Shown here piece by piece: positions 419 through 40,227 of a stretch of 54,487 nucleotides of DNA; within the stretch, counting starts at the first letter, position 1; every line of letters starts with the position of its first letter. The translations under genes were made by a program, and so were the position numbers. The notes below the pieces were generated by a model, which searched no databases, had not been told where the DNA came from, and was given only the letters and a program-made list of their open reading frames with translations. This DNA is from Catajapyx aquilonaris (lineage: Eukaryota): assembly GCA_000934665.2 (NCBI GenBank), contig JYFJ02002574.1, positions 1 through 54,487 of the forward strand. Direction: 5' to 3'.

Positions 419-2933
419 ACTGACTGATGTAAAAAATATATCATACTGTGTTGGAGATGTCTCAATATAAACTGGTTTATCTGAGCAACCATGCTATATT
501 TATCTTATATAATTATAATCGGACCTGCTGGGTTTTTGTTTCGACTTTCGAGTGTATAGGCTATATAACTTTTTATGCGTCCGTACACGTGAAAATGCAA
601 GCAGAGTTGATTCAAATTAGAGTTTCTCATTTACTTTTTAATAATAAAAATGATAACATGTCAATATTGACTTAATTTGTCGCTTTTACATGGCGTGTGC
701 AGCATTACATTGTTTCTTTGCATCACCAATAACATTTAATAATATTACATGCGCATATTAATATTTTAGAAAACAATTCTGATCATGGCTGCAGATTTGC
801 AGACTCAGACGTCGCTGTCATTGCAATTGGCTGCTTACTCATGTCCACCAACATATTTTCCTACTTGTATTTAAGTGAAAGGTGATGTAGAGTGTAGTGT
901 TCAAAATGTTGGCCGGGCTCCACCATGTCACCAGATAATAACGTAAATAAAGATTCAGTTCCCTACGAATAACAGCGCATGAATGCAGCACGAATAACAG
1001 AGGACAACGCTCAACCCAATCATTTTAAAGACAAAGGAGCGGTTTTTTGTCTAGCTGACTGAGGAAATACGTGTCGATTCAAATATCCTTATTCAAAAAA
1101 TAACAGTACAATCAAGTAGATCATTCTGATCAACAATGGTGACGTTACATATTGAATGAGCACAAGAGGGATCAGCATCAGAGACGGACAGAAACCGCGT
1201 CCGCCGTCACTGAAGGACTTCCTTAAAAGCCTGGATGACAAGACAACATACAGTGGGCGAAGAGAAGATTGATTGCAAGTTGACAAAGAAGTACGGGGTA
1301 CGCCACACGGACTCTGAGGGAGTCGGAGGATTTCCTCCTCAGTACGGTGAACTCTCTCGAGGAGAGGATCATGATCGAACATGAACGTGACTTATTCTAC
1401 CTAGGAAGACCCTTGTGATTTCTAAAAGAAGCGACAGATCTAATGAGGATCGTAGAGTCTAGTTTGTTCGGAAAGGATCCCATGTATGCCATCTACATAT
1501 TAACTATCCAGCCGTGAGGGAAGTAAGTGGCCGCGTGCTTCTGCAGCAGTCATTGACAAATTACTTCATCCCTAGAAAAATTCTCAATTTGTATGACTTT
1601 GGAACCAATGTTTTACTACACATCAAACAAAACTGTCAGTATAGTTTAGATAATGTTGACAGAATGATGCAGTGTGCATTGAGGAAGACCCGATTAATGT
1701 GGGTGCCATTGTTGCGTCACATTTCTACGTACCCTTACGCATTACTCGACACAAGCGTTACTCTGCAGGTCTACCAGATTCTGTTCCGCCGAATAGATGT
1801 CTTGAAGCTCTTACAACAAGGAACAGGTTTAAAAAAAGTGAGATTCCGCCGGATAATTTTCCATCCCCTTTTGATGTGGAACGAATACTAAGATAAATTA
1901 TCGAGTCAAGGCAGACAGGGAAGAAACCAAGAGGAGGCGATCCATGGTACCCCCAGTTTTAAACCTAGACCATCTTCACTTAAAGATTTCTTGGACACAG
2001 GAAATATCGCCATTACGGAGGACGCCTTCCGTCTACGTTAACTCCAGAATTCCTTCCAGAAGCTTCCGTTACCCCGCACTTAACTCCTCCATTCCTCCCC
2101 CTTTGGAAGTTATATCAAAGTTCCTGCGCTCTGTTTGAGGCCGCTGCCTCTCTGATGAGTAGACCATGGGCGGGAACCCGAACCGGAGCAGTAATTAAGT
2201 AGCACTAATTAGTCACAACTCTGTGTAGTCTACTCTTGCGACCCACAGCGTAAGATAGAAATGGATAGTAAATGAAGACGAGTGACAGAGTAGTGAATGT
2301 GGCAGTCAGGCCCATGAAAAGTATTCATTGATCATGGGATGACTTAATTTCATTGTGCTGCAACATGTCTCACGATGCAACATTACTGCTCGTCGTAATG
2401 AGATTGGTTTTGACCATAAGCCAGTCCTCTTCTAAGCCTTAATTTTCGCCTTGCGACCCACACTATAATATACCAGGTACTAACTGAAACACCAGACTTT
2501 ACAGTTCATACAATATAATTTATACTGCTATATACCCTTTTTAAAAATATAGCCAGAAGAATAAGACGGTAAATGGTCAGTATCACAAGGAGAAACTATC
2601 GCGGAAAATATCACAGATGAACATTTTTCCGATACAATTAAAACTCCCCGAACAAACTACATCACAGGACACAAACTATCACACATGTTGTAAGATTCAT
2701 GTCTTTACAACCTACAGTAAGACTGAGGTCACGTCCGACCGGATTTTACAGTCAATATTCTAAAACATGTGTCCATAAGTCATTTTTTCGTAATTAGAAA
2801 AACAACACAAAACGATACAACAGCCAACAATCAATGTAAATAATTGTCAAGTGAATGGTACATTGCATCATCGCCCCACTCGCAGCGGTATAAGTGTCCA
2901 TCGTGGGTACCGTAAGAATATTAACCCTTGAAA

Positions 2934-3030
2934 ATGGGACGTGGCCAGGAGGTAGATGAATATGTGAACCAAATCATCATAAAGTTGCACGGGAAAGGAC
3001 GTTCTGGCGCTGCATCGCGCACAGCATACG
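2934..3030 (+). mobile_element. Tc1-like transposase N-terminal HTH fragment
   Basis: MGRGQEVDEYVNQIIIKLHGKGRS resembles Tc1 starts of the form MGRGKELS...IV.LH..GKS; short and frameshifted. Confidence 0.4.
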
Positions 3031-3768
3031 GCGACACAAGGAGTTGGGTGAACTGTCCCCAAGCGACGATCTGGCTGAAGACCACATCACGCATGAGCGT
3101 ATGCTACCGAACGTGGTTCGATAGAACCGGTGGTTGTCCACTGCAGAGGTCATCAAGAGGTCTCACAGGGTAATGATAGTCCAAGTGCAAACGGCGCGCC
3201 GTACAAAACGGTCATTACAGATAATGAGAAGGTACGGATCACAAGTTCACATATTTTTGTTATGGTGTATTTTAAAAGAAGAGGATTAGTGGACCACATC
3301 ATGACTCCACAAGATGACAGAAACAGACCCGTACACGGTGGAAACCTGCCGGATCACACCATTCCGCACGTATATGTAATGAGAAACTATGTCGACTCTG
3401 TAGAAAGAACGTTTGCGTCAGTGTATAATTCACTTCTGAATCAATAACAGCTACAGGATATTAAATACAATGCCTTTTTTCTTTTGTTTCTAATCCTGCG
3501 TGGTTAGATGTCGGGATTGTTTTTAACGAATGATTCCAGTACATCGATATTTTCGTCACGTCTCTTGTGCCAGTAACATTGCCATACTCGTACAACATAC
3601 TCTAAAATATAGAGAAGGGAAAGGTGGGATTGTGGCAACACTATAGTATGGGAAGTCATGGACGACTTTCCTACGCCGATAAGGCTGCAATTAAGAGAGA
3701 GAATTTCGGAACTCGCCGAGCAAGACCAAATGTAATAGTTCTTGTGGTACACGTAGAAACGGCGAAGT

Positions 3769-3910
3769 ACCACTCAAGTAATCGAGTCGCAATGGCGCCC
3801 CTTGAAAGCAAGAGTAAGAAAGGGTGGAATACCAAATGCCACATTTTTCCTTCACTTGGCCGAATATCTGTGGCGGAGGGAGATGAAAAGTATAGGACCT
3901 GATCCATTCA
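3769..3910 (+). mobile_element. Merlin (IS1595/ISXO2-like) transposase C-terminal fragment
   Basis: TTQVIESQWRPLKARVRKGG...HLAEYLWRR.....DPF matches the Merlin TQ.IES.W...K...YLAEFMWR motif. Confidence 0.7.
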
Positions 3911-4901
3911 CGGGATCCGTGTCTGTTTGCTCGAAGCTGTATTCTGTTTGTTACATCCTAAACAAATATATTTTTTCAAATATCTTCATAACAACAAATT
4001 GATATAACATGACTATAATGCAGGGACACCGCTACACATTATTTTACCAGTTTCAGATGAAAATATGAAGACTGCAAGTGACACACACGCTAGACTCTAC
4101 TTGCAGACCTAAGAACAAGAGAAACAGACACTCTCAAGTCGAACAATATCGCCCCATTATTTTGCCAGTCGCTTAACAAAGGTTTTTTTTGTCAGGATTT
4201 GAGCAGTTTCCCATACTTTGTTTGGCCTGATATTTCCTGAAACGTACTAATTATTTAGATCCTCAATTCTACGAGCTAGCTTTAGACGAATAACATTACA
4301 ATCCTCAGGAAGTCGAGGAAGGGACGTACCACCGCAAGGCATCGACAGACACTGGGACGTTGGGGTGTGACTTCCCGTCACTAAATGGCAGGAGAGCCCT
4401 TGGCTGGGACCTAGGGTAGGGAGGGAGAGACCACGACCCTAAGTGACCTAGCGGGGTCAGAGGGATGACCTGACGAGGCCAACTCTGGGTTTATCGTTGC
4501 ATTTCGAAATTAGTTTCCGTGGATTCCTGTCCAAGTGTGGCGGGGAGTGACCAAAATAGGTGTCATGGTCAACTTCAGGTGTCCCGCCACTTCCGGTTTC
4601 CGGGTTCACTCTATCCGCACATGTCGACGAGAAAAAGTATATTCTAATCACGTCGCGACCCTCTGATCCTCTGACCTCCGCAACATTACATAGTTATATG
4701 ATAGCTCTTTTCTCTAATGTGCATAATTCAGAATCGTATAACATAATTTTTATATTGTCATACAGTAGTTTGATCCTAGCAAAATTCTAAATTTGACAAT
4801 GACAGCCACGAGTGCTTCAAATTGTACTCCGCGTTCCAGAAGTCGTATCATCGACAGACAGAGCCATGCTTAAGACTTTTTCTCTCTCTAAAAAGTCTAA
4901 A

Positions 4902-4967
4902 ATGGATGTTTTTAAGGCTGGGTTCCCCGGTCTGGTTTGTCTGATTGATGGGAGTCGCACGCATCAT
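4902..4967 (+). mobile_element. PIF/Harbinger transposase micro-fragment
   Basis: FKAGFPGLVCLIDGS resembles the GFPGVIGCIDGTH first-aspartate motif; very short. Confidence 0.45.
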
Positions 4968-5659
4968 GCCAAAGACAGGTCAAATTAGAATGTGAAAGAC
5001 AATATGCCAAGAAGGAAGCTGTCTCCACTAATCCCGTCGCAAGCCTTTGATCCCGGGGAGATCCGATCTCTATCTATAACACGACGCGACGGTAAGAAAC
5101 CCCATAGGGGTACGAAACCCCACGACGCGACGACCAGGACTTTTTCCATTAATATTTCAACATGTAACGCTTCTTTGCATGATTTATAGGAGGAACAGTT
5201 ACGTGGAGGAAAATGTATGAACAATTGAACATACTCGCCGATACTTATGATGCGCCAAATTTATCACATCTATGAATAGAACACAGTATATACTGATAAA
5301 TCCTCACGAGTACTCGTCTCCTTTGACGAAGGGACATTTTCAAAACCCGGAAGACACAAGAGAAAAGGGCCATCGCCAGTTAGAGGTATATTCATCAGAA
5401 ATATGCAGCTTTTGTTCACAATGAACGTGACGGTTCATGTGAGGCAACAGGCACACTAATAACTAGTGAGAAAAGGCAACCTTCCGTGATATTTTCTTTT
5501 TCCCCATCTCTAGCTACGAATCTTTTTTTATTTTGTTTCTATCAGAAACAACGCCACCTTCATCAACATATGACTGAACATCGGAAAACCTTTTGAACAG
5601 TACATTCAAATATTTTGTAACAGCTCTATTCCGGGCCACGCCACCTTCTTCAACATATA

Positions 5660-6389
5660 CAGGGCTATTCATAAGTCTTGACCCTATTTTAAAAATTCAC
5701 CAAAAATACACTACACAACAGATAGTTATAATTAATATACCAAAAGAGCGAGAAAGGATCCGAGTTTTTTTTACAGCAAACCCCTCTCGTGTTGTAGCCT
5801 TGCTGTGCCGCTAGGAGGCAGTAGTTAGAAAATGATAAATTATACATTATAAATGAACATGGAGGATTACCTCTTTCAACAAGATGGTGCTCCACCTCAT
5901 TTCCATACCCAGGTGCGATGGTACTTCAACCAAAACCTACCACGACGTTAGATTGGACGCACAAGTCCCGATGATGAGGTGTTAATGCGGTGGCCACCCT
6001 GGTCACCCGATTTAACTCGCAACTTTTTCTTACTGGGATTTGTGAACGGCACTGTCTTTGTGCCTCCACTCACTGCCAATGTCCAGGAACTTCGCCACCG
6101 CATCACCATGGCTGTCACAAACTCTCAATGATTGACCTAACAAAAATTTACTCCATTTCGCCCCATACGCGAGCAAGCATGTCACATGCTTGCTCGCGTA
6201 TGGGGCGAAATGGAGTATCGGCTAGATGTGTGCCGGATCTCCAGAGGAGGACACATTGGACATTTGTAATGTGTGTAAAAAAAACTCGGATCCTTTCTCG
6301 CTCCTTTGGTATATTAATTACAACTATCTGTTGTGTAGTGTATTTTTGGTGAATTTTTAAAATAGGGTCAAGACTTATGAATAGCCCTG
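5660..6389 (+). mobile_element. Internally deleted Tc1/mariner DNA transposon with ~115 bp TIRs and TA target duplication
   Basis: TA|CAGGGCTATTCATAAGTCTTGACCC...GGGTCAAGACTTATGAATAGCCCTG|TA. Internal peptide FQQDGAPPHF...IGR...WPPWSPDLT..FFLLGFV (WPPRSPDLTPCDFFLWG-type) with stop and frameshifts. Confidence 0.92.
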
Positions 6390-6591
6390 TAATTTAGAAC
6401 TGTACTTAATAATGATCGATTTACGTACTAGAGAGGTACAGTATGAATATATAAGAGTACTGTAAAGTAAGCTTACAAAATAACGACACCGGCCTCCCCC
6501 ACCACACTTAGATGAAAAATACTACGGTATGTGTTATACGCAAGTTGTACGTCCTTCTTCAGTTCCCTTTTCTCACGACTTTTTAGGTTGA

Positions 6592-6849
6592 CAATTGAAG
6601 GGGTCGGTGCAATACTGCCCTAACCCTCCCAAACCTGATTTTGAGAAAACTGCAGTTGAAAGTTTGAGAGGCCATATACATCCCATATACCATGTGACTT
6701 ATTTCATTTGATTTCTCAGTGACCGATGGCAGAAACTGCACAATTTCAATGGATTTTATTAGATACATGAGTGTAGTACATGGAAGTGTGCTTAACTCAA
6801 TTTGTGTCATTTGGTGGGTTAGGGCGGTATTGCACCGACCCCTTCAATT
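6592..6849. mobile_element. MITE with ~45 bp terminal inverted repeats
   Basis: AATTGAAGGGGTCGGTGCAATACTGCCCTAACCC ... GGGTTAGGGCGGTATTGCACCGACCCCTTCAATT. Confidence 0.75.
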
Positions 6850-7169
6850 ATAAGTACACTTCCATAAAAATAACTAGTTCAGGTCTGTACACATTTGAAA
6901 CAACGGCGGCAAAGCGTGTGAGCATCGCCCAGCTCCAATTTGTCAGGTCCTCCTAATCACTGTGGAGTGATGCTGGTCGAATATTACTGGTGAAATCGTT
7001 CCAGATACCATAGAGATAAAGTAATATAATTACAGGGTCCTCAATGAAGTGTTCGTAAAGTCATCAATAAAATCGGGAGTGTGACAGTATTCTGCACATC
7101 ATGGCCAAGACATACCTCCCCAGTCCTCCCCTGCCCACCACTATCCTTCCTCACTTTTCTTCTTCCCTT

Positions 7170-7265
7170 CTATCAGACGTCCAGCAAGCCATCGACATTA
7201 TCACTGAAGCCTGGTCGTGCGTAACACCGTCAACAATCGTGAAATGTCGGGGTAAAAGTGGGTGA
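7170..7265 (+). mobile_element. pogo/Tigger transposase fragment
   Basis: DVQQAIDIITEAWSCVTPSTIVKCRGKSG resembles the DAI...AW..V...TI.NCF.KAG motif. Confidence 0.65.
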
Positions 7266-8243
7266 AAATTAAAAGCGCATTGAGACAGATCCATGGAAAA
7301 TTATATGCACGGTACGGTCCATTCATGTTACATGTTTCAATCGTCACTCTACGCATATTGTACTATACAAAGACTGGAGAAGGATATTCTTAACGGTCGA
7401 GTTCACCGTTCCAGTTGGTTGGAGTGGGAATGTGGGTGTGCGATAACTTCCCGGAGAAGGACATGGCGGTAGGAATCTCCATGTGGAGCATTCCCAGACT
7501 TGCAGATTTGGCTGACAGTGAGTGGGAATACGGGGTCTGGATCACCCTTGTGAGCCTTATAAACGCATGAATGAATACCGGCGTATCAGCGTCCTTTTGG
7601 GTGCAGAAGTTACGACATTCTTAAAAAGGAAAAGACCTGGTTCTGACCTTTTGTGGCCACCTAATGGCGCCACAGAGGTACGAATTTCTCTCCCATAAGA
7701 AACTCATAACATTTTCTGCCGGTAAATGATGCACACATATCAACTAGGCTACTTTATCGTCAATTATTGACCCCTTTACTCCAATTCCAACCGAATGTGA
7801 TCAGTGGACTTCACTTCAGCACTGCCAATATTTGTCAACTAGACGTGGACGCCAAGAGCAACGGACGAGCATTCCACAAGAAAATATTGTCAAGAAATAA
7901 GGGGCCTCATACGCATCCGGGAGGAAGAGCATCCTTCCTGTTTATACAACAAATTATCTGAGACATATCTGTAAAATATAAGTTATTTCCAGCTTAATAA
8001 TTAGTTGTAACATAAAAAGCATTAAATGAGCTTGGAGATACACCAGTGAAAGACTTGAAATCATAACATGCCCATCATCAGTTGCTTATCGGTTCAGGTT
8101 ATTTGGAAACTTCATACACTGTATGTCAGTGGTCCAGGATCAGTTCCTCATTTTATGAGGGAATGGTAACCACGAAAGTCAACATTAACTAAGAGTCCTC
8201 GACAGGCGCAGAAGGATTCGTCAAAAAAATCAGGCTCATTTAA

Positions 8244-9101
8244 CCCATTCGTTCCCAGCGTTCTATACATAGGACGCTTGGTAAAAAAATATTTCTTGAA
8301 ATTGTGCATATAAATCGCAGAATAAGCAATCTGAACCACTGCATGCAAGTCTAATCTAGTGGGATAATGCAGATACATCACATTTCAGTGATCGCATCAG
8401 CCCCAATTGATTTTGGGAAATGCCAATTTCAGACCTGGCGCTATTGAGTAACTATTTCCTTAAATAATTATAAATATTGTACTTCTACATCTCTGAAAAA
8501 TTAATGCAGTGCGTGACTGTTGCAAGAAAGGTTATGGGAAGCTTCCATAAAATATTTACATTGTTGGCCTTCATGACTGGCGAATGACAGCAAGGGAAAC
8601 AATGGTGTCCTACAATCCACTAAATACTTTTGATAGCCATTAAAGTAATTGCTTAATTTATGTAGATTTGAGCCAATAACAGCCACAGCAATTGGAGAAG
8701 TATTTTAGATCACCCTGTATAGCCAGGTGTTACATAGTGTAACTTTGGACCCATACTTTCCTAGATGAAAAATGAGAAAGGCCGTCGAAAAATTTATTAA
8801 CTCGATGTAATGAGCTGCAATACCTGAATTATTGGGATAATAATGCGATTCCATCATTTCCACTAGTAACACGATTCAATGTGAGTATAGCTACATTTCA
8901 TTGCATTAAAGTGAAGCAATGAGTGGAGAAAAAATTATACGGATTGTCCTAACGTTCTATATATAGGACGCCTTGCAACTTCTGTTGTAATTAAAATTTT
9001 ACGCTGAACTATTTTTGTTCTATCTTAGTTTCTGCCTTCTTACGCATGACTTAAAATATTATTAAAATATCATAAGTAGATCAACCTGGGGAACAAGTGG
9101 G
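8244..9101. mobile_element. Non-autonomous piggyBac-type element
   Basis: TTAA|CCCATTCGTTCCCAG ... CTGGGGAACAAGTGGG|TTAA; the subterminal motif CGTTCTATA(C/T)ATAGGACGC occurs twice. A mariner-like end (GATCACCCTG|TA, ~8719) is nested inside. Confidence 0.75.
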
Positions 9102-10199
9102 TTAATACAACCAAGACATGGCTAAAAATACCATCACATAAATTACATAAATATTATACGACTTTACGTTGTGTGCATTTAGGTAGCCAGTGATCGGATG
9201 CAGAGACGGTCAAGTGCGCCTCTAAAGCAATGGACGATCCATCAGCAAGACCGTGAGACCACAGAATCTCGTAACAATGATGAACCGAAGAAGGCGACAC
9301 CCATGCAGATACAACTCTGGTCGGCCTTGCTGAGATAATGTCCCCTCTAAACAAACGCCACAACTGCACAAGTAGACTCTTATATCCGAGAAAAACTCTT
9401 TGCCATCATCATTGTGATTAAGTCATCCTAAAGACTAGTATTCACCTGATGTCTCACGACATTTTGCAGTTGCGGTGGAAACCCCGACAAGTATCCCTGG
9501 ATTGTCCTCTCAAAGGAAGTGACTTCATCCAGACGGAGTATTATTATCTACCTAGCGTGTCTAATAGAGTGAGACTCTACTGTGTCATATGATGTGCGAG
9601 TCACATGCCACAATATCTAACCTTGTAACAAGCTAATAATGCAACAGATGCAGGTTCATACCAATAATACCAGCACTAAGAACAAGAGATGACAACGCCG
9701 AATCCACTTCCTTTAAAAACCTAGCTGGCAGAGGAGTACGTACATGTCCTTGGTACTCGTACATGTCCAGTATCTTGAATTGAAGAAACAACCGAGTAAA
9801 TCACTCTAATCAACAATGGTGGTTTAATCGCGACAGTTAGTGGCCGGAATTCATGCCAGACCGAAATCAAAACACCTCTGAAAAACATAAATGTACCGTG
9901 ACCGATGAAACACGGCAGAAGTACGTGGTATTTTAGTTTTGAATGTAAAAGTGACCGCTTAACGGACGCCTTGCGAAGTTCTGTGCTTGCGAAGGGGACT
10001 TGACCTCGCATAAGGTGCAAAAGTGGTCATCAAGACAGTTAGACGATGGAAACGAAAAGTTAGCGGTATGAGAGATGTAGATGGTTCAACTTGAGGTCCC
10101 ACCTTCAATCTATCCTGACACTAGGGTAGAGGTCCTCATTAAGTGCCAAGGCAACACGTACACCCGCGAGCATAAAGATGGAGACGGCCGGCCCTCACC

Positions 10200-11400
10200 T
10201 TCGGCAGGCTGCTCTGTCAATCTCAGCAATTACGGTATCAAATATACTGTCATAAATAATTGTACTGTAGTTTATCCTGCTGTAGCCTATAATCACAAAC
10301 ACAGACTTCAGATTCAAATTATATTTTTCCGTTAAATATTGGCAAATTTGTTTCACTATTTAATGAAACCAACAGTACAATATTATGAAGGCTGAGCAAC
10401 ACTACACGCGACTAGTGTGTTCACCTCCAAAATATACGAATTGTCGCGACAATACTTGGTTCCGTGCTCCTTCGTAGAATACTAATATCCTTATTAATTT
10501 GTTTATATTGTTGTCCTTTGGCAAACCTGATTATCAACAAAACAAGGTCCGACAATCACGTGCACCTCGATGTGATGGGTGATTTGGACTACCAGTGAGG
10601 TAGGAGAGCTCGCCTCCGAGGAAAGGTGGCATCTGCCTCCTGGTTTATACCATGTCTCTTGCCGCATTACACATACACAATATCATCAGGGATGATTGAG
10701 CTTATGTCATATTTGCTGTCATTAATAGGTTACTATAACAACGATGCAGGTATGCCTTGAAAAAATTTAGCGTGATCTCATGATAAACTTTGTAACTTAC
10801 TGAGTAAAAGCAGACCATGTCAATTATCCACTTCACTGCAATAAATTTTTGGTTTCTGACCATGAAGCCAGTATCTTCAAAGTATATATTATAGAAATAC
10901 CTCACACAACCAGAACACCTCCATCGCTAGCAGTATGACTCGATTAATGGCCAACACTGTACAGAAGTGATTTCCTTATATTCAGCTCAACATCTAGGAG
11001 GCTACAGGCAAAATAGGCTGACTTTAGACCATTTGATGCAATTCTTTCCAAATTAATGGGTTCAGCATACATGAAACTTGGAGAAATCTGACGCAAAGGC
11101 TGCTCGACTTTTTAGACATTGTAGAACGTGACGGGAACGTCACTGAAATTAAGAGAGCACCAATTAGGATCAACTCTTGTACAAAATAATTATTGTAGAA
11201 GTGTGGTCCGAACGACATCATACCATTTTAGAAAGCCGACCATCTCTGCAAGCTCCAAAGTCACCATGCAATGGGAGCAAAGTCGTAACAAGACCAAAAC
11301 ATCACCCATGATGAATATAAAAACACAGACGGACTTGCTCGAGTTATAAAACTTTCCTTGTTGGTGCCATCAGCCTGAGGGAGAACAATGTGGGAACATA
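10200..11400 (-). pseudogene. Decayed Cys-rich glycoprotein-like coding segment, divergent copy (candidate endogenous viral element); boundaries approximate
   Basis: WIIDMVCFYSVSYKVYHE..FKAYLHRCY (10735-10830) is homologous to FIIDLVCFYSISYKFYHE..LKAYLHCCY at ~12695-12795; many stops and frameshifts. Confidence 0.5.
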
Positions 11401-11649
11401 CGTATTATATCCACGTACGATGTAGGCTACTAGCCAGAAAACAAAGTTGTGGTGATGGTGACGTGACGTTTATAAAGTGCGCTGAATTGGAAAAAACTGT
11501 GGAATCCCTGGTAAAAATTCCGATTTGGCAATGAGGTGGAAACCCAGCCTGATTTTCATAATTGTCCTCCAGCAGAAAGGGACATCAACAGGACAGAGAA
11601 TTGATAACGAAAAGAACCGTGTACTTGACGCGGATCCGACAGGACGTCA

Positions 11650-13810
11650 TGCAGGGAGTGACTCAACAGCAAAGGTCGAGCCTTCAACAAAACATATCCA
11701 TCCTGTAAAACCTTATGGTCCGTGTCTGCAGGATGCAATAAGTATTCATGCTAAATCACATGGGCAGAGTGTAAAACCGATACAAGCACCCACACAACAG
11801 GTCGCCTGGAAAAGATTAATCCACCACAACGGCAAGGTTCATTCACCAAATTGAAACATGCCACCAGCTATTTACAAATATAATGTTTTACTGCTGTCTA
11901 CTAATATTAGATAACCTTTTCTTATTGTGTACCAGCCTTTTTGTTTAGGACTTTAACAATATATTTGATGCACAGTTTTTATCCCTCCCCACTCCATTTA
12001 GAGGAGAAAGAGGAAGGATAGAGGAAGAAGGAGGGAAGTAGGCATACGAGTGTACTACAAGACATTAATATATCAGCCCGCAAGGACGGGAGAAAAACCG
12101 AGTACAAGATGAGGAACTGAGGAAGCTTATATCATCCTATTGCAGGCGATAGATTAGTATTGCTACTTAATCTCTTTAAATTGAAGCTTTATTTTAGTAT
12201 TTGGTATGAAAATGCTTTTGGACTGAGAGTCGATGTATTAATTTCAGGTTGGTTTGGGTTACTGCAAAAGTTTTTGTCTGCCCTGGTAATTATGGCCCAA
12301 GGCCGAAGGGCACTTGCATAATCAGATATACAGTTTGTCGCATCATAATGACACAGAATCCTGAATAGGCTACTGTGGCTCCTTAGTCACAATGATTTTG
12401 CATAATCAAAATTAGGTGCACACTTGAAAGAGAAGTGGTTAAGTCGCCAGTCCCATGGATGGTACAGTATTATGCTCATTACTTCTGTACAGACAGGTAG
12501 CACCCAAGTATAGCACCATGTACGGGAAAAAAATGAAAATATATATTCAGTAGCTTTTTTGTCTTCTTTTTTATCATTAGGCCAATTAGCATCATTCCAA
12601 TAACATACGTGTAGGAGCAAAAATGAGCGACAACTTTTGCTTTCGAAGTTTCAGGTTGGGCTTATGTCATCTTTGTTGGCATTAAACCTTACCATAACAA
12701 CAATGTAGGTAAGCCTTCAAAAAATTAAGACTATACACTCATGATAAAATTTGTAACTTATAGAATAGAAGCACACCAAGTCAATTATAAATACACCGGT
12801 ACTACAAAAAAAAAGCTGACTTATTCTGTTATCCTAATGTATCGCATGTTTCAAATATAATGCATGGAAGCAGCACATTTTATGATTTTGACTGCAAACC
12901 CATCAAAAATATTTTGTCTGACATAATTCACAACTTGAATAATTTCACCTTAAGGCGTTGGTTTGGTTACCAATGTGGGTGGAAAAAGAAGAGGGCCATG
13001 TGTATACACGCCTTCATGATCAAGAGACTCTTATAAATAATACAGTTTGCGATCTAATATAACGTTCATGTCATGCTAGCGTTAAACATTTGTTCAACAA
13101 GTCACTGCCACGATGGCAAACACACTAATGGGTAGGCCACTTTTATCATCCAAATCATATCTCGCTCCCTTATTACTTGCACTATCTATTACCATAATTT
13201 CACTCCAATAAGCAGAAAGCGTGTCACAAGGTGGAGGTTAATGATCAGGAAAAGGAACTTACTGGTAAGCAAATGCAAGGTAAAAACCCATTTCAATAAA
13301 CACATTATGAGTTGAAAGTGAGTTGCAGTAGGAAGATTACTGGCCAGAATCAGCTGAAAACTATGGCGTAGCCTACTAATAATATGATCTGGCGGCATTT
13401 TTGTTAAATTTCTCACATGCAGCCTAGCAGTCATCAGCTCAACTTTTCTGTTAACATGGGAGTAACCAAAATGAAAATATATCTAAATGATGCATTGCAA
13501 AACACAGTAATGCTGACACATAATAGCGGTAGCAGGAACAAATTGTGAAATTGAATATGGCCAGAGACAAAACGTGCCACCATAATCCACGCACTATACA
13601 TTATTAGAAGCACATGTTTTTATTTTAAATTAGATATATAATGCAAAACCGCATTAGGAACATCATCAGTGTGTTTCAAGTATCCAGATGCACTAGTTAT
13701 CGCATGTTCCGCCTCACCCTCCGAACACCCCATCTCGACCAACTTTCCCGCGCCTCTCTAACCGTTTACCGTTCGAACCGTGTACGAATGGGTGAAAAAG
13801 ACGTATGAGG
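11650..13810 (-). pseudogene. Most complete decayed copy of the type I membrane glycoprotein-like gene (interrupted at ~11880-12200)
   Basis: Homologous to 17820-19141, 20345-20690, 21975-22440 and 32190-32620. Peptides WIMVARFVSGHIQ, FSFKCAPNFDYAKSL, YDATNCISDYASALRPWAIITR, TLPLWWINLF, QTRTIRFYR. Confidence 0.55.
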
Positions 13811-14278
13811 AAGAAGTCTTCATAAAAACCACAGATAAATCCTGACGCATCTGAGCGCACCCGTTCCTTGTCTATGAAACCCCTCTAGGCATAAACTTGG
13901 TTGGCATAATATACTGGAACTGGTCACTATAACAACGACAATAACGCGAGTTGTCTCCAGTTCCTGCAGCTTATTCGACTAAAGAGTGTGAAAAGTGTCA
14001 AGATGAAGAGACGAGCGACGCCGAGTCGTACGTGACCTGCTCGAAGGAGGCTCCGGACGTGTTGTCCGTTGACTACACTCTGGCGGAGGACAAGTGGAGC
14101 GACGCCGACGACGTTAGGATAGACCCAGGGACGACCCTCGAGTTTTGATTGAATTCTTGCAAAGTACCACGATTTCATCAAATTCGTCTGGTACAGTGTT
14201 CTCAATGTACATATTCCGTATATTTTAGCGTATAGGCTATTTCACAATAATTAAATCAGACTAACCGTTGGCTGGTAT

Positions 14279-14906
14279 AGTAGGAATCAGATCATAATAA
14301 ACTTTTGAAAAAGTGGAAGGGTTGTAAATTGCAACAGTGCAAGGTTTAGGACCGGACTGGAAAGAGGAGGGTCACTCTCAGATTAGGACGACCGGGTCCT
14401 CGCCTCGGGCTTGTACCAGCTGGGGAAGTGAGCCTCCGAAAATAAGCTGATGAATTTTTTAAGGGTGACTCTTTTTGAATTTTTGACAGCAAATATGAAT
14501 TCTAAGGTGTCGAAAGCCTATATTTTCATACTTGATTCGTATCAAATACTCTGTAAAAAGTATATAACTTAGACGGTGCAATTGCGAAATGAAATTCTTC
14601 AAGTTTTTCTTTACATGCACGTGGCCTATTTGTGACATGCCTGATACGAATCAAGTATGAAAATATAGGTTTTCGACACCTTAGAATTCATATTTGCTGT
14701 CACAAATGCAAAAAGAGTCACCCTTAAAAAATTCATCAGCTTATTTTCGGAGGCTCACTTCCCCAGCTGGTACAAGCCCGAGGCGAGGACCCGGTCGTCC
14801 TAATCTGAGAGTGACCCTCCTCTTCCAGTCCGGTCCTAAACCTTGCACTGTTGCAATTTACAACCCTTCCACTTTTTCAAAAGTTTATTATGATCTGATT
14901 CCTACT
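14279..14906. mobile_element. Fold-back element: ~265 bp near-perfect inverted arms with a ~97 bp spacer
   Basis: 14279-14544 is the reverse complement of 14642-14906 with only a few mismatches. Confidence 0.9.
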
Positions 14907-15170
14907 CGACTTTCGTTTTTTTACGACTATCTATGTGAAAATCATTTTAGGGACTTCTAAGCGACGAAAATCGTCTCCAATACATTCATAGTGCAGACTG
15001 TATAGTGTAGAGCATAAACGTGTTAGTATATGATATGATCCTACATGTATCACGGTAGCTGTTATTATTTGTAAATTATCTTGTCCTTGTCTTCAGAGTA
15101 CGTGTAAGCGACAACCTGTAGGCGATGGCGGTATATCTGGTATTGCGAAGAGGTTTAAAAAAAGAACTGA

Positions 15171-15944
15171 AATAAGAGCAAAAACATTCCCTTCAGTGAA
15201 AAAAAGGGTAGTAAGACCTCCGAGGCGGAATGAAAGTACTGAAACAAGGCAGGCGCACGTAAGACCTTCACCAATTGATTTAAGCTGTACCATAGGTCTT
15301 ACTCAAGGACTGCATGGAACGGCTCGTAAAAATTACTGCTACAAACTACTCAGACCAGTATGTAGGGTTTTATTTTGAAAAGAAGAAAAAATAAATGGGA
15401 AAAATTTAAAGCCATCCTAACAGACTTGGTCCAATCGAAAAAGACCCTCTCAAATTCGCCAATTAACGTTTATATGTGAAAAGTGAAACATTAGAGTTAA
15501 AAATCAGTATCTAAAAGGGGTGACGATTCTGAATTATGAATGTTTCATGGCAATAATTAGCACCAATCGTATAGAAATTCAATGTGCTTAATATTGAACT
15601 TCCCAATTTCAGAAAACACATATGGAGTGGCTCATGGAAAATTAATGGGTGGAATTTTCGCTGTACTACTAGTAACTATAGTTACTGGTAATTTAGCAGC
15701 ACCATTGCACTACACTGGTACTGCTAAGTTAGACGTAACTAGTAGGCCTAGTATAACGAAAATTCCACAAATTGTTTTCGGTAAGGAGACTTCATGAGCA
15801 GTAAATTGGGAATTGCTTGAGTAAGACCTATGGTACAGCTTAAATCAATTGGTCTTACGTGCGCCTGCCTTATTTCAGTACTTTCATTCCGCCGCGGAGG
15901 TCTTACTACCCTTTTTTCACTGAAGGGAATGTTTTTGCTCTTAT
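15171..15944. mobile_element. Element with ~130 bp inverted arms and a nested palindromic MITE (~15649-15768)
   Basis: ATAAGAGCAAAAACATTCCCTTCAGTG...GGTCTTACTCAAG (15171-15307) versus its reverse complement at 15817-15944; a GTAAGACC motif is reiterated in the arms. Confidence 0.85.
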
Positions 15945-16169
15945 AATATTAATCAATTGAAGTAGCACAGAAGGAAATGGACAATGAGGGAATTATAACA
16001 GATCCCAGGCTAGCGATATGGAATTTGTTGTAAGTCAGTGAATCACGGATCAAATTATCATTTGAGAGAATGGTACCCACGAAACTTAGTTAAATGAATT
16101 GATCTCTGGAGTAACTGTGCAGTAATACCACAGCTGGCCGATGACACACACACACACACACACACTCTG

Positions 16170-16830
16170 GAACTGTATGCAAATTTGTGTCTGCAGGGTG
16201 GTGCAACTCTCGCATTTGCATCAGGCATTTCTTACTTATCCTACGCATCGCCATGCTGAATTACAACCATTGCGTTTCCAATATAACCGTTGAATTGACT
16301 CAGTGACATTGTGTGCTCACACATCAGATTGTCAACTGGCAGGTATTGTTGACATTGAGTAAACACTTAAGAGTTCCTAAAGTCAGGACGTGACTTACTT
16401 AGAGGCCTGTTCGAGGGCCGCTCACCGGCGTCACCAAGGCCTATCAGTACATGGTGGCAGCGGGGTGAGACGAATCTACTCCTACCGTTGTTGGAGAGTC
16501 AAAGTCTTGCACAAGCTTGGACATGGCAAGCTTGGGATTTCGACCTCCAGAACCACTGGACTTCCAACGTCCGGAAGGATGGGCTCTGTGGAACGCATGT
16601 AGCCACGCATCTCATTACCAAGTAGTAAAAAGTGGCATTCAATCAGAATCAGCACAAATGCAGCTGTGTACTTCGCTGCTGCCATAGTACCCGCCAACTA
16701 AAGTAAGCCATCGACGTGAGTATTTTTGTAATCACCTTACGTCAAGTATAATAATTAGAACAGTTGACTTACATCAGAAACGTTGGGCAAAGGCCTGGTG
16801 AACTGATGATTTGTCCTGTGATTTGTAGTT
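16170..16830 (+). mobile_element. Heavily decayed Ty3/Gypsy pol (integrase region) remnant
   Basis: Fragments KFVSAGW, AHRRHQG (H..H.G zinc-finger half) and a LPL....WTWQ...FD segment occur in the expected order; weak match. Confidence 0.3.
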
Positions 16831-17066
16831 TCTGTCTCAATATATATTTTAATAAAGGTGACGCTTAGCAAATGCATTGTGTGCAACTGATCTCGCATAT
16901 TTTTCAGGTTTTAAATATGGCATTCAACATGGATTTGTTACTTGTAGTGTCCAGATTAGTTTTAAAACATATATTGATGTCCGAGTATACAAATCTTGTA
17001 AAAATCAGTTGATTTATTGATTGGATCGATTCCAAGTCGAAGCAGTTACCACCGGCCAAGCCTGGC

Positions 17067-17180
17067 TAATATCGTCCAATGGAACTGCCGTGGGTACTTC
17101 CATAATTTGGATGATATCAAGGGGATAATACGACGTTCACCGCCCTCTCGGCATGTGCCTCCAGGAAACTCTTCTGAGAG
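17067..17180 (+). mobile_element. LINE AP-endonuclease N-terminal fragment (I/Jockey-like)
   Basis: NIVQWNCRGY ... (frameshift) MCLQET are the two canonical APE N-terminal motifs. Confidence 0.7.
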
Positions 17181-17369
17181 GAACACAGAAGGCATATATT
17201 CCAAACTATACACTTCTTCGTGAATATTTGTGGCATGCCGAGTTATCCGTTCAATAATTTTTGATACCTTATGTTATTTCTTGAGTTCATTCGTTCATGC
17301 TTTCTGCAGGTGTTGAAGATCCCTCCAAGGGACAGACTTACACACCACAAGAGGACGAAGTACATTATG

Positions 17370-17460
17370 CCTCGCGATATTATATAAAAGAAGGCTGGTA
17401 GTGCCGAATGATTCCAAGCTGCGCATTGAAATAATGAAGGAACGAATTACTAATTCTCGC
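17370..17460 (+). mobile_element. Ty3/Gypsy pol micro-fragment (segment just before the integrase zinc finger)
   Basis: YKRRLVVPNDSKLRIEIMKE resembles R.VVP...LR..IL.E.H. Confidence 0.5.
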
Positions 17461-17819
17461 CAACAAGAAGCGGAAGCCATCTTGGATTTGTGACATCAAA
17501 GGGTGCTTCCCTACCGCTGGACATGGTCCACACGGAACGACGCTACGGGCTTAAGCGCCATTGTGGTAAGCTGTTACTAGCCAGTAATTTTATCCAGCTC
17601 TTTAATGACAATAATATTTGATTTAAATTTCTTTAAATGGCGGCACTGCAAACAGCAGTCGTAGTTGACATCCAGGTCAACAGGCTATTGTTTGCTATCT
17701 ATCCAACTTGGAGAACTTTATAAAAATTTATCGAAACAGCGCAGAATGCCGGCAGTCAGCCTGATACCGCCGCCTGATTTGTGAAGCCACAGTTGATATT
17801 CAATCACGGAGAGATATCG

Positions 17820-19141
17820 ACAAGGTCAATCCACCACCACGACAAGGTTGATGCTCCAAACTGAATAACACACTAGATGAAAAGCTGCCACCAGCTTATT
17901 TCACTGAAACATCAGACGTTACAGTTCACACAATTAATTCTGCCATTTGAAGCAGCCTTTTGAAAAAAGACAGCTAGAAGAATAAGACAGTAAACATTTG
18001 AAGGAGGTAATTCTTTGGCCACTGTCACAAGAAACAGGGTTCAAGGTTTCAATGTTAGGCAAAGAGCGGCCGTGCGGTAAGTCATAACGATCAAGAACCT
18101 CACAAAAATCGTGATGATTGCATGAAAATGCTTTTGAACTGACAGTCAGTGTATTAATTTCAGAGTTTATGTTTTCCCTGGTAATTATGGCCCAAAGGCA
18201 CTGGCATAATCCGGTGTACAGTTTGTCGCATCATAATCACACATAATCCTGAATAGGTTACTATATGCTATATGGCTCCTTCCGTAGACACAATGATTTT
18301 GCATAATCAAAATTAGACGCACACTTGAAAGAGAAGTAGCTAGTCCCATGGATGGTACAGCATTATGCTCATTACTGCTGTACGGGCAGGTAATATGCGC
18401 ATCTAGGCACCATGTAGCAAAAAAACCAAGAAAATATTTTCATATAATATAATTTTCATATAATATTTTATGCAGCTTTTTTGTCTTTCTTTTTATCATT
18501 AGGTCAATTAGAATAATTCCAACAACATAGAAGCAAAAATGAGCGGCTACTTTATATTTCAAAGTTTCAGGTTGGGCTTATGTCATCTTTGTTGGCATTA
18601 ATACCTTACAATAACAACAATGTAGGTAAGCTTGAACAAATTAGACTAGGCACTCATGATAAACTTTGTAATAGAAGCACACCAAGTCAATTATAAATAC
18701 ACCGGTACTACAAAAAAACAGGACTTATTCTGTTATCCTAGTGTATTGCATGTTTTAAATAAGTGTAATACCTGGAAGCAGCATATTTTATGATTTTGAC
18801 TGCAAAATCACCAAAACTATTTTGTTTGGCACAATAACATGAATAATTTCGCCTTTAAGCCCTTCAGGTGTTGGTTTGGTTACCAATATGGGTGGGCAAA
18901 GAAGAGATCCTGTATTACGCCTTCATTACCAAGAAACTCAAACAATCCAGATTGAGATCGAAGATAACGTTCATGTGCATGCCGGAGCTTAACATTTGTT
19001 CAACAAGCCACTGCTACCACGGCAATCACACTAGAAGGGAGCTAGAAGCAGACTACTTTTACAACCCAAGTCAGATTTAGCTCCCTTATTAATTACATTT
19101 TCTGCGACCATAAAGTTTCGCTCCAACAAGCAGAAAGCGTG
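17820..19141 (-). pseudogene. Decayed glycoprotein-like copy (central and C-terminal ectodomain)
   Basis: Co-linear with 12205-13222 over ~1 kb. Open frame EINTLTVSSKAFSCNHHDFCEVLDRYDLPHGRSLPNIETLNPVSCDSGQRITSFKC, followed by a Trp-rich segment. Confidence 0.55.
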
Positions 19142-19269
19142 AAAGTCCCAGCAACATTCCAAAAAAAGCATTGGGACAGAGATTCGGACTCTCCACGAGG
19201 GTCTTACAAAATGTCACGAGACGATATGACCAAGACGAATACCAGATGCCGAACGCAGAGTGCTACACA

Positions 19270-19830
19270 ACACACTGTCTAGAACTGCACGCAAAAGGCG
19301 GATAATCGGATATGCGAAGAGAGTAGATGATAGAAATATATGCGTTACCATGGGTGTACCCTATATATTTGCCCTGATGTTGTCTGTGGAGTCACCATGT
19401 TCTACTGTGATTGCATAGACCTTTGATATGACACCCTGGCCGAATTCGTGAGCGGGAGCGTGCCTCGCAGGATTGTTGCTTGTCGGTATATTCACGAATT
19501 ATTTATAGTTAAAAGGGGAAAACGACTGCTCGAGGCGCGTCCTCCGAAAATAGTGCATCAGCTGGCTGGAGCAGACCGCGGGGCATAATGAGTACTACCG
19601 GCCATCGTTACTGTTCCAAACATTTCACCGCAGTACTCGCAGTAAGTTGCACATGCACTAGGTGACATGAATGTGATCTTGATATTTTAGAGATGCCTCG
19701 AACTTGGGAGGAATACGGGGGCAACCTGAAGTGTGTCCTATGTGGAAAATGGAGCCCCCGGAATAGAACAAGGCCATACGAAGGACCAGGCGGCATTCGT
19801 GGACGTGCATGTGGGCGATGCAAACGTCGT
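19270..19830 (-). mobile_element. Helitron PIF1-like helicase remnant
   Basis: Frameshifted ALFYSGGSIFH / RTHFRLPPY...ISKISR (GG.T.H..F.LP), then KGLCN and SDYPPFACSSRQ (GLCNG...PF...RQFP), in the correct order. Confidence 0.45.
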
Positions 19831-20174
19831 ATTCATCGTGGTAAGTATGCCTCATACATCAACCAAAACTTTGTTGTTGTTGTTGTTGTTGTTGTTTTGG
19901 CAGAAGCAGAAGCCAGCACTGCTAATTCTGAAAGTGGTGGGCACCTTATTCCGATGATGATCCTGATTCAGGTGGTGGTGGACTGCATGACCCTCCTGGT
20001 GATGATATAGTGTCTGCATGGTGGTGCAATTGGGCTTATCCAGGGCCAGCTTCACTGCTGGAGGCCGGTTGGGAAACGGTCTGTATTAAGGGCAAAAAAT
20101 GCGTCGGCCACTTGAGCGTCGCATGTTTCTTTTAAAAATGACCAGGGGTTACGGAAGTTATATTAACGCAGCAT

Positions 20175-20337
20175 ATGGACGCCGAGGGGTATGTTAAGCT
20201 CCTGGATGACGGCCTGCTCCCGGAACATGAGGTACCCGGTGGAGCAGCGCATCAGGTTCGTCCACGATAACGCAAGAATCCATAGGACGAGGTATACAAG
20301 TGACTACATTGAGGAGGCGAATATGTGATGGCCCTGC
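20175..20337 (+). mobile_element. Tc1 DDE transposase fragment
   Basis: MDAEGYVKLLDDGLLP / IRFVHDNARIHRTRYTSDYIEE..*WP matches the F.(Q/H)DNA..H...WP motif. Confidence 0.75.
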
Positions 20338-20344
20338 TTATAAC

Positions 20345-20690
20345 GAAAAGTACCGTGGACTTTGAGGTTGACTAGAGAGGACAGCATGCAGGACGTGCTT
20401 CAAGAGCAAAGGTGGCGCCTTCAGCAAGAAATGTTGATCCTATAAAATCTTATTGTCAGTGTCTGCGGGATGAAAGATGTAATCAAGCAAAATACCTTGG
20501 GCAGCGTGTAAATCGATACGATCACCCAACAGGTCGCCAGGAAAATGTTAATCCACCACGACGGCAAGGTTTATGTACCAAACTGTTTATGTACCAAACT
20601 GAATAACACAAGTGACGAAACGCTATTTTTACTGAAACATCAGACGTTACAGTTCACACAATAAATTCTGCCATTTGAAACCTCCTTTTT
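20345..20690 (-). pseudogene. Decayed glycoprotein-like copy (TM helix and cytoplasmic tail)
   Basis: TLPSWWINIFLATCWVIVSIYTLPKVFCLITSFIPQTLTIRFYRINISC*; homologous to 11660-11875 and 17825-17960. Confidence 0.55.
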
Positions 20691-21974
20691 AACCCTCGGA
20701 CGGTGACGTGGGGACTTTTTGTGACCAACGTCACTATTTACGCTATAACTTGGAAAATTGAGGATATTCGAGATTCATCTTTGAGAACATTTTCGTTTGA
20801 CTATTTCTATGACGAATGACGTTTAGTTTAAATTTTTTGAGCAAATAGCATGACCAGGAAATAATTACTTAGGCGGCAATGCATAGCTGGGGCCCGACCA
20901 AGATCCGGTCTAGCTGCTCCTGGTGGCATCCCAGGGCGCCAAGGGGTGGAATCCCCCTACCCCCGAGAGTAAACTGAAGCCTCCCCCTCTTTTTGGCCTG
21001 ATGGGTTGAAAAATTCCGGACTGTTCAGAACCGGACCTACAGAAATGTAACAATATTGATCGATGCAGCAGAACTAGCCGTGGAATAAGAGCAGAACCTT
21101 CACATCAAGAGAGATAAATACAGCTCCCAAGATACTTCAGAGGCCGAGAAGGGCGAAATAGAGGTGACTATGGCTGGAAAGTCACAAACTATAAGTATAA
21201 GTTCCATCTTATATCCAACGTTGCAACACATTAACCCTATTCCAAGGAGTGAAGTGTTGCGCAATGAAACTAGCGAGAACTAGTCAGAATAAACTGACCT
21301 GCTTGTGAATCAGACCTGCTCAGGATGTGGTCTTACCGTTGTAGCACATTATATCAGGACGTCGCGTAGGGACGGATCTTCGGAAACTGCACGAGTGTCT
21401 CATGGAACCAGCATGGCACAGAAGGATAGGATATCACTAGATGCCGAACACTTACCCATCTGATAGAGATCTTCGTATCTCTCACCATGCAAGTATAGCA
21501 GTGAAAAAAGTCATCTCAGTAACTATATACATCACCACGAACACCCGTCTAAAATTCATATTATATTTTTTCAAATCTCAGCAAAAGTAATGGTTCAACG
21601 TACGGGATTTGCAGATCCCGTACGCCCCGCAGGGTTTTTGCGGGCGATAAGGCTGCAATCAGATCTAATAATTTCGGATACCGCCGAACAAGACCAAGTA
21701 GTATCATGCACAACGAGTAACTTATAACAAATGAGCGACTATACAAGTATACACTTATAGGAATGCAAATGTGTGGCACTTGCAGACAATTGGGCCACTC
21801 GCTGAATTTGGAAGACAGTGGTAAAATTTGCATATATTCCAAAGAATGATGACACGGTTAATCAGAGGTGTCTTAGCCTAAACTCTGAACCAAGATATTC
21901 GTGGCAGATGCCACGTTGTATGAATGTTTAGAAAGGCAACAACTACACTGACTTTATGTTCTATAATACGTTGA

Positions 21975-22440
21975 AACGTTGTTAAATTCTCATATGCAGA
22001 CCAGCAGTCATCAGCTCAGCTTTTTCTGCTAGCATGGGAATTACAAATGATGAAAATAGATCTAAATGAGAATGTGTTGTATTGCAGGGCACAGTAATTA
22101 TGAAGCATATTAGGCGACGGAAGACCAGGAGATACGAGCCATCTTTCTGAATATGGCCAGAGACGAAACGTGACACCATAATCCACGACATTATTCGAAT
22201 CGCATGAATTTTAAAATAATGCAAAACCTAATTAGGAACATCATAGGTTATTACAGGCATCTATGGTGTGTTTCAAGTATCTGCAGACACATCGTTATCG
22301 CAAATTCCACCTGGCCCTCTGAATCCCTACGTGAGAAAGAATTCCACAGATTCAGCCCCATCTCGACCAACCCGCTAGCATGCACGGGTCTCTTCTGAAG
22401 TGGAAGTAAAGACACAAGAAGAACAAGTCTTCCTGAACAT
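21975..22440 (-). pseudogene. Decayed glycoprotein-like copy (N-terminal third)
   Basis: HYFKIHAIRIMSWIMVSRFVSGHIQ...ITVPCNTT...KAELMTAGLHMR; homologous to 13400-13810 and 32300-32600. Confidence 0.5.
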
Positions 22441-22729
22441 TAAAAGTAAATCATGGTGTGTGTGGATAATGTTTATATAAAGTTGTTCCATCTGATAAAT
22501 ATAAGTATCAGCATTCATAAATATATACTGCCATATGAAATGTCATTTTTAAAATAAGGCATTTAGACGAAGCTACCGCCGGCATAGCTCTTGGGGTCAC
22601 GGGAGAACGTTACAACTTTGGAAGGGGACGAAAGCAATCTCCATGTGTCCTTTACATTTTGAAGCCATGGAATCACACTATCTGCGGGTGTTTCACTCAA
22701 TCCATAGCCTTCATACACTCAAGATCGCT

Positions 22730-23220
22730 GCATACGTCTGTTCCAAACTCCCGTCATCAGAAATCCTCTTAACAGTGCGGAACATTCCTCTGCTAAACCC
22801 ACAACCGAAAATGATCCTACTATTCTTCTGAATCCAGATTTCGACACTCTGTACTTCCAGATACTCTTTAGAAGCGACTATGCAAGTTCGGATGGACCCC
22901 ACACCACATACGTTACCTTACAATAGTATAAAATGAGTAAGAGTTAGGAACCATCCTGAGGGAACTAAACCTGTCATCACCACCCCCACTGCCTTATCTA
23001 TACCAGCATCTTCGGTAAAAGAAGAGCGATCCATCCATCCTACTTGATGAGAACCAGAGACTTCCTAAAACCCGCTGCACAACATCTGAAATCTAGTATT
23101 GGAAAGGCGAACTACGACAGTATGTTATCATAAAAATGGTACAGTTTAACATGACTACAGACAGCCACTAAATAAGGCGACAATAACTTTTCCCAAGGTA
23201 CCAAAAACTTGTCCACCTAC
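22730..23220 (-). pseudogene. Second decayed coding family, copy 1 (unknown protein)
   Basis: PWEKLLSPYLVAVC, DVVQRVLGSLW, SLLKSIWKYRVSKSG, VWNRR; homologous to 26285-26760 and 29715-29860. Confidence 0.45.
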
Positions 23221-23384
23221 GTTCGGGCTGGGGATACAACAATTGGCGACGAGGAGTAGAACGCACTTACGACAGAGCTACGCCGCTCCGTTCTGCTTCG
23301 GAGATTTCCGGGCGTGAGTCCTAGTGCAGATGGAGAGAGAAACGAAGAGGAAAAAGAACTGAGAAAAGACTGGAATCTCTCTTA

Positions 23385-37148: not shown

Positions 37149-37151
37149 ATA

Positions 37152-37731: not shown

Positions 37732-37756
37732 TATACTGTAATAATGCGAACAGGTA

Positions 37757-39993: not shown

Positions 39994-39995
<2 letters not shown>

Positions 39996-40210: not shown

Positions 40211-40227
40211 ATTATTATTATTATTAT

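Follow-up and report, generated by a model that had tools for sequence, protein, structure and literature searches.

Local (tandem) segmental duplications and decayed paralogue clusters in the repeat-rich intergenic DNA of animals consist of direct, collinear, low-copy units with graded divergence, shared lesions and later interruptions by transposons. A single locus can likewise contain several decayed copies of an endogenous viral element, which over short stretches differ in a seemingly synonymous way. Nuclear copies of mitochondrial DNA (NUMTs) carry in-frame TGA codons, and their TGA/TGG and ATG/ATA differences are silent in an organelle code. Orphan small open reading frames are short, cysteine-rich, locally duplicated and without homologues, and they show codon-phase bias. 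These four are the described systems closest to the locus considered here, a set of decayed repeats in a 54,487-nucleotide stretch of the Catajapyx aquilonaris genome (assembly GCA_000934665.2, contig JYFJ02002574.1, positions 1 to 54,487 of the forward strand; hereafter the window), which an initial annotation had taken for genes that diverged while functional before they decayed. The locus shares the features just listed, with Kimura two-parameter (K2P) distances that run from 0.16 to 0.35, but departs from each system. Unlike the usual segmental duplication, it has no nameable parent gene or homologue, and at most about 90 codons bear a coding-like trace. Unlike endogenous viral elements, it has no similarity to viral proteins or contigs and no hallmark gene, and its lesions are common to the copies. 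Unlike NUMTs, it contains no recognisable organelle gene, its composition does not resemble that of organelle proteins, and no high-depth look-alike contig matches it. Unlike orphan small frames, its frame is closed in two of three copies.

By appearance the window is animal-type nuclear DNA, with a GC content of about 0.41, no long open frames and several transposon remnants. The locus within it is made of decayed local duplicates of low-copy host DNA and is not viral. A unit of about 2.2 kb recurs as four decayed direct copies across 22 kb (Table 1), and all of them are collinear at one locus. Units 1 and 2 contain copies B and C of a 138-nt repeat (the block), whose third copy, A, stands apart from the units. 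Divergence is graded: K2P is 0.156 for segment Y between units 1 and 2, 0.25 for segment X between units 1 and 3, and 0.22-0.35 for pairs of segment Z, and within the block it is 0.074 for B-C, 0.24 for A-B and 0.28 for A-C. By these distances unit 2 is a more recent duplicate of unit 1, and the remaining copies are older. Similarity between copies continues through stops and indels, and a tblastx self-comparison of the window gives matches in six frames at every place where the DNA is similar. Around unit 1, a search of 11300-13950 turned up no direct or inverted terminal repeats of at least 16 nt. The copies are thus what a segmental duplication leaves behind: collinear, in the same orientation, at one locus, and with a similarity that is indifferent to coding frames.

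Table 1. Coordinates of the duplicated units, the block copies and related features in the window.
Feature	Position	Strand	Remarks
Block copy A	10694-10831	-	blastn identity 81% to B, 77% to C
Open frame in copy A	10705-10926	-	74 codons in the chosen frame; ends at TAA
Unit 1	11602-13850		most complete copy; X 11602-11855, Y 12206-13223, Z 13251-13850
'Tail' peptide QTRTIRFYR, unit 1	11702-11728	-	in a 23-codon open stretch; frame has shared stops
Block copy B	12654-12792	-	inside unit 1; 81% to A
Codon-periodic stretch, unit 1	12806-12926	-	chosen frame; unit 2 counterpart 18712-18834
Shared TAG, chosen frame	12834-12836	-	C: 18738-18740; between periodic stretch and block
High-copy repeat cluster (bins)	13704-16038		between units 1 and 2; summed contig depth 4,900-79,000; inverted arms
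Unit 2	17817-19142		aligns to unit 1 at 11807-13224; over Y, p-distance 0.140, K2P 0.156
Block copy C	18570-18698	-	inside unit 2; 77% to A, 93% to B
Unit 3, left part (segment X)	20338-20692		holds QTLTIRFYR; K2P to unit 1 0.250
Unit 3, right part (segment Z)	21972-22461		Y absent between unit 3 parts
Unit 4 (segment Z only)	32168-32635		K2P 0.31 to unit 1, 0.35 to unit 3

The low copy number of the units sets them apart from their surroundings. Contigs from two DNA runs of the same organism were placed on 9501-23500 at a likeness of at least 80% and their depth was summed per bin, a quantity that differs from copy number, leaves copies below 80% likeness invisible and was used for look-alike pile-up only. 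The bins over A, X, Y and Z have summed depths of 28-52, which is the depth of the single contigs bearing the window sequence; for bin 10435-10901, which holds copy A, the value is 39.9/28.6, the depth of the single contig that carries this copy. Elsewhere the summed depth reaches 12,000 and 1,900 (bins 9968-10434 and 10902-11368), 4,900-79,000 (across 13704-16038), about 300-3,200 (across 19308-21175) and about 560-18,000 (across 22110-23500). Bin 20709-21175, between the two parts of unit 3, contains a high-copy repeat. Of the runs catalogued as RNA, none contains sequence from 10001-20000, and one run of undeclared type (X5) falls on high-copy repeats only, a pattern that carries no information on expression. 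Extra look-alike contigs at 80% or more are absent from A, B, C, X, Y and Z, and thousands of them pile up on the neighbouring repeats, so the units are low-copy local duplicates amid high-copy transposon debris and do not form a dispersed family. The same data bear on the idea that block and unit belong to a dispersed transposable-element family, with copy A as an independent insertion of a short non-autonomous element. An A-rich run does follow the block on the plus strand in B and C, and the neighbourhood is full of high-copy repeats, but copy A lacks the A-run, no surplus contigs fall on the units, and terminal repeats are missing. Pfam finds no transposon protein domain in the units, the transfer RNA (tRNA) search returned none, and Rfam gave no match at gathering score in the window and none at E<=1 in 10400-13400. 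We regard this origin as scarcely credible. A small nucleolar or other RNA was also considered and rejected, as Rfam gives no match and no fold is convincingly conserved (alifold covariation terms of -0.43 and +2.44 kcal/mol; fold z-scores of -2.1, 0.35, 0.55 and 1.33).

The initial annotation had offered two origins for the copies, namely independent integrations of related viral strains or paralogs once under purifying selection. Viral strains that diverged as replicating genomes before insertion would account for differences of synonymous type and for a synonymous divergence (dS) above the neutral divergence of the host. Against this, protein searches of the array came back empty. Among 148 stop-to-stop frames of at least 60 residues over 1-32305, only a hAT remnant at 161-415 passed the curated Pfam cut-off, outside the array; 136 frames of 30-59 residues inside the units gave none at cut-off and one match below it, and a further 121 frames gave no viral match. 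For the 74-codon frame of copy A, phmmer found no protein at E<=0.001 among 1.84 billion representatives, and no relative appeared among the viral contigs of IMG/VR, where two queries were run in all. The Atlas gave no usable match for this frame either, with a recognition of 1538 compared with the 2300 reached by 91 of 100 proteins of known families. A 116-residue read-through of copy B, with X at its four stops, found nothing in a word-indexed set of 5.8 billion clusters, in which proteins of 63-203 residues were searched. Zinc-knuckle-like CX2C motifs occur in the translations and were set aside for want of a supporting Pfam family. Furthermore, about 1 kb of non-periodic sequence is common to B and C, together with stops and indels; over 1.0-1.4 kb the copies have non-coding-like sequence, indels and stop codons in common, and they represent collinear pieces of a single unit, all oriented alike and lacking terminal repeats, as in local duplication. 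No test supports the viral origin, which is close to refuted and can be dropped as barely credible.

The second origin calls for a closer look at the block. The codons and peptides quoted in the initial annotation are indeed present on the minus strand (WIIDMVCFYSVSYKVYHE at 10777-10830 and FIIDLVCFYSISYKFYHE at 12738-12791), in a reading frame that we call the chosen frame. The two 18-codon stretches differ at nine nucleotides, distributed 3/1/5 over codon positions 1/2/3; four third-position changes are silent, as had been said, and others replace residues (W>F, M>L, V>I and V>F). Self-comparison places both stretches in the 138-nt direct repeat, which has three copies, including one (C, 18570-18698) that had gone unnoticed. 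Copy A is the only part of its neighbourhood that resembles the unit, nhmmer with the --max option did not extend it past 10694-10831, and it lies in low-depth DNA between the two high-copy bins 9968-10434 and 10902-11368. Its chosen frame is open for 74 codons, and the TAA that ends it occupies the same columns in B and C. In copy B the frame is closed by a 2-nt length difference from A (common to C), a private 1-nt deletion and a TGA; copy C has private deletions of 9 nt and 2 nt and an in-frame stop. A plus-strand micro-exon, with acceptor-like and donor-like sites at the ends of the block, was also considered and rejected, B being frameshifted; the only plus frame open in both A and C has zero A-C differences at third positions by hand count.

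Differences between A and B are biased towards the third positions of the chosen frame. When the difference positions are shuffled over the 18 codons, four or more synonymous changes arise with P=0.024, for one of six frames and an interval chosen post hoc. Over the whole block, 9.5 of 25 A-B changes are synonymous where 5.5 are expected (P=0.026). Codon positions 1/2/3 account for 9/3/14 differences (chi-square p=0.030); any of the three phases would have three or fewer with a probability of 0.033. The ratio of non-synonymous to synonymous divergence (dN/dS, omega), calculated by the NG86 method, is 0.32 for A-B (bootstrap 0.11-0.90) and 0.42 for A-C (0.16-1.16), two comparisons that are not independent and that use a frame picked by eye. 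Within the block, B and C are less diverged than in the rest of Y (9/128 compared with 124/822, P=0.0045), a contrast qualified by the least diverged 135-nt B-C interval, which runs past the block.

A second, independent bias is seen between B and C in the 121 nt (119 aligned) that adjoin the block upstream on the minus strand, at 12806-12926. The 14 substitutions there are distributed 12/1/1 by phase, and the 12 occupy third codon positions of the chosen frame. When all 150-nt or 120-nt intervals in all phases of Y were scanned and permuted, the observed periodicity was matched by 1 of 3000 permutations in one run and 0 of 1000 in another. B-C is the only clearly significant pair of the 11 repeat pairs; of the other ten, the A-B block gives P=0.048 and the remaining nine P>=0.18. 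In the standard code 7 of the 14 changes are synonymous, and over 12926-12837 (NG86, 27 of 30 codons) dS is 0.635, dN 0.062 and omega 0.10. Downstream of the block the phase counts are 6/4/10, 4/3/3 and 5/4/2. An 81-codon plus-strand frame at 12791-13033 was rejected as the source of the pattern, as the periodic differences fall on its second codon positions.

Outside these two stretches the unit behaves as non-coding DNA, and nearly all of it is non-coding now and was so formerly. The initial annotation had proposed to ask whether stops and frameshifts are shared or private, and both kinds occur: over Y, copy B has 17-29 stops per frame in all six frames, and 8-21 of these per frame coincide in column with stops of C. 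In segments X and Z no synonymous excess remains significant after 42 frame tests, and no local periodicity is seen. Leaving aside the block and 12806-12926, dN/dS is near 1 and disabling mutations are shared, which is the outcome that the initial annotation had named as speaking against divergence of functional genes. Its second example, the 'tail' peptide, is of this kind. The tail frame compares QTRTIRFYR in unit 1 with QTLTIRFYR at 20439-20465 (minus strand), which lies beyond the interval 10735-12797 given for the finding. Three of the four changes are silent, as claimed, but they do not amount to a signal beyond chance: over X, 14.5 of 52 changes are synonymous (P=0.16). The frame has five stops in the unit 1 copy of X and three at the same columns in the unit 3 copy, which indicates that it was already closed in their common ancestor, and an equally silent-rich interval adjoins the tail in a different frame. 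Among 231 gap-free, stop-free 18-codon intervals from ten repeat pairs and both strands, nine, at three loci, have at least 44% synonymous changes; the 18 codons that drew attention at the outset are one of the three.

How are the two biased stretches to be explained? In the reading that we tentatively prefer, and which as a whole falls just short of an even chance, a host segment of about 2.2 kb would have been locally duplicated several times, always in direct orientation. The copies would then have decayed by substitutions, indels and deletions, and high-copy transposons would have inserted between and into them, with unit 2 as a younger duplicate of unit 1 (K2P about 0.16) and units 3 and 4 and fragment A as older ones (K2P 0.22-0.35). 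About 90 minus-strand codons, from 12926 down to 12665 in unit 1, may be what is left of a short exon that belonged to a lineage-specific (orphan) gene. Purifying selection would have acted on this putative exon for a while after the duplications, hence the pile-up of third-position changes, and stops and frameshifts would later have disabled it in B and C. The proposal of paralogs once under purifying selection thus survives for these 90 or so codons of the chosen frame, with omega of 0.32 and 0.42 in the block and 0.10 next to it, and fails in X, in Z, in the tail, in the rest of Y and at 13013-12929. When the small permutation P is weighed against the misfits, real past constraint at the codon level on the short stretch has about an even chance, and the codon-phase bias, which is itself an observation, may reflect past translation. 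If so, the locus would record how a very short lineage-specific gene arose, was duplicated locally and died, and a gene without relatives in public protein space would make a small, clean case of orphan-gene turnover.

Several findings sit badly with a former exon. The 2-nt indel inside the block separates A from B and C, so that the three copies cannot all have kept one frame, and the frame is open in copy A only (74 codons). In B it is closed by private TGAs and in C by a private TAG, TAA and TGAs and by 4-nt and 2-nt indels. Between the two biased stretches, B and C have a TAG in common at 12834-12836, and upstream they share further stops. Within the block, the B-C differences fall 5/2/2 by codon position. 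Of the 12 third-position changes upstream, three make or unmake a stop and two alter the residue, roughly as expected of third-position mutation that is not filtered by its effect. Divergence in 12806-12926 (14/119) equals the Y average (133/950), being redistributed by position and not reduced as purifying selection would demand, and the dS of 0.635 is four times the K2P of 0.156 of the surrounding duplicated DNA. Immediately upstream, 84 nt at 13013-12929 have an omega of about 2. In B-C as a whole, 16 of 21 indels are not multiples of three and 5 are. The acceptor-like sites that precede the block do not lie equally far from its conserved part, the distances differing by 5 nt. Finally, no homologue was found in any library searched, and the Atlas recognition of the copy A frame is within the range of shuffled sequences.

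Many of the same findings fit a history in which duplication and decay proceeded as above in a unit that was never translated, with the third-position excess in two short stretches as a statistical accident. Stops in every frame of Y, many of them common to B and C, indels without triplet preference (5 of 21 multiples of three), unbiased X and Z and the absence of homologues would all be expected of it. It also suits the unreduced rate in 12806-12926, a dS above the flanking divergence, and nonsense and non-synonymous changes that go unfiltered at third positions. The A-B signal reaches just P of about 0.03, for one of six frames picked by eye, and intervals of 18 codons that look equally coding occur at three loci, two of them in adjacent, mutually exclusive frames of X. 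An accident has to contend, however, with a scan-corrected P of about 0.0003 for B-C, or about 0.004 after multiplication by 11 pairs, with a B-C bias that lies in the frame named beforehand from a different copy pair (a further 1 in 3), and with a B-C divergence that is lower in the block than in the rest of Y. We consider a never-translated unit a serious possibility, somewhat short of even. If chance is the answer, the locus offers a caution: short synonymous-looking intervals between decayed duplicates arise readily, at three loci here, and cannot support claims of viral origin or past function.

The excess of dS over the neutral divergence and the abundance of TGA raise one more candidate, a unit derived from a system in which TGA encodes tryptophan, such as a nuclear copy of organelle DNA, an organelle plasmid, a mitovirus-like element or a transfer from Mollicutes. 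The chosen frame has 8 TGA, 1 TAG and 1 TAA in 312 codons over 12189-13124; translation table 4 opens frames of 214 and 96 residues there, and of 136 and 88 residues over the tail copies. Two TGA/TGG flips and one ATG>ATA change are silent in translation table 5 (invertebrate mitochondrial), which raises the synonymous count in 12926-12815 to 10 of 14. Frame length is no evidence, however, since table 4 yields 20 frames of at least 170 residues in the window, up to 347. Nine table-4 translations belong to no Pfam family at the curated cut-off, and searches with table-4 translations in viral contigs and in 185,579 prokaryote species (one genome each) brought up no relative. No high-depth organelle-like contig (>=80% likeness) falls on the units, and the ABC transporter exons of the window read normally in the standard code. 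The peptide, moreover, is rich in C, R, H and K, which is unlike animal mitochondrial proteins. A derivation of the unit from such a system is therefore very unlikely. Equally so is a more specific version, that a foreign element without known relatives, for instance mitovirus-like or from an organelle plasmid, was captured in tandem and used an organelle-type code in which TGA specifies tryptophan and ATA methionine. Were it true, the copies would have diverged under purifying selection before or while they were copied into the nucleus; with TGA/TGG and ATG/ATA changes silent, the third-position divergence of 31%, above the neutral divergence around it, would be explained.

Beyond the units and their putative exon, the window holds further repeats. 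In the cluster between units 1 and 2, a high-copy repeat contains a nested element of about 626 nt at 14277-14904, whose long inverted arms (14279-14544 and 14642-14906) are 98-100% complementary. The DNA runs include contigs that join 14277 straight to 14904 (depth 1227 in X1), which indicates other genomic copies of the host repeat without the insert. A second foldback element, or one resembling a miniature inverted-repeat transposable element (MITE), spans 15172-15944, with arms at 15172-15307 and 15816-15944 (93-100%), and nowhere in the stretch is the summed contig depth higher than in the bins over it, where it reaches about 79,000. Further direct local repeats of low identity (22831-23181 and 26354-26708; 26727-27047 and 31418-31736; 22715-22901 and 29699-29854) suggest that local duplication reaches well past the units studied here.

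Upstream of the units, the hAT remnant at 161-415 on the plus strand is the C-terminal dimerisation domain of a hAT-family transposase (PF05699, 22.9 bits against a cut-off of 21.4), and an inverted repeat at 5658-5775 and 6274-6391 has 118-nt arms of 98% identity with about 500 nt between them. Downstream, 37149-37734 is a near-perfect palindrome, with 280-nt arms that are 97% complementary and a 26-nt spacer, and it yields two near-identical open frames of 110 residues on opposite strands (37167-37499, plus; 37384-37716, minus); a second pair lies at 37754-37972. Within 39916-40318 and 47361-47804 there are microsatellites, (ATT)26 and (TAG)30, as well as 10-16 tandem copies of a repeat whose period is 30 nt. 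The ABC transporter exons lie on the plus strand near the end of the window, with matches to ABC_tran at 50688-51026 (E 8e-11) and ABC2_membrane at 53534-54031 (E 3e-14). Between them, a repeat at 52838-53456 is related to 41638-42378 and has an inverted structure of its own.

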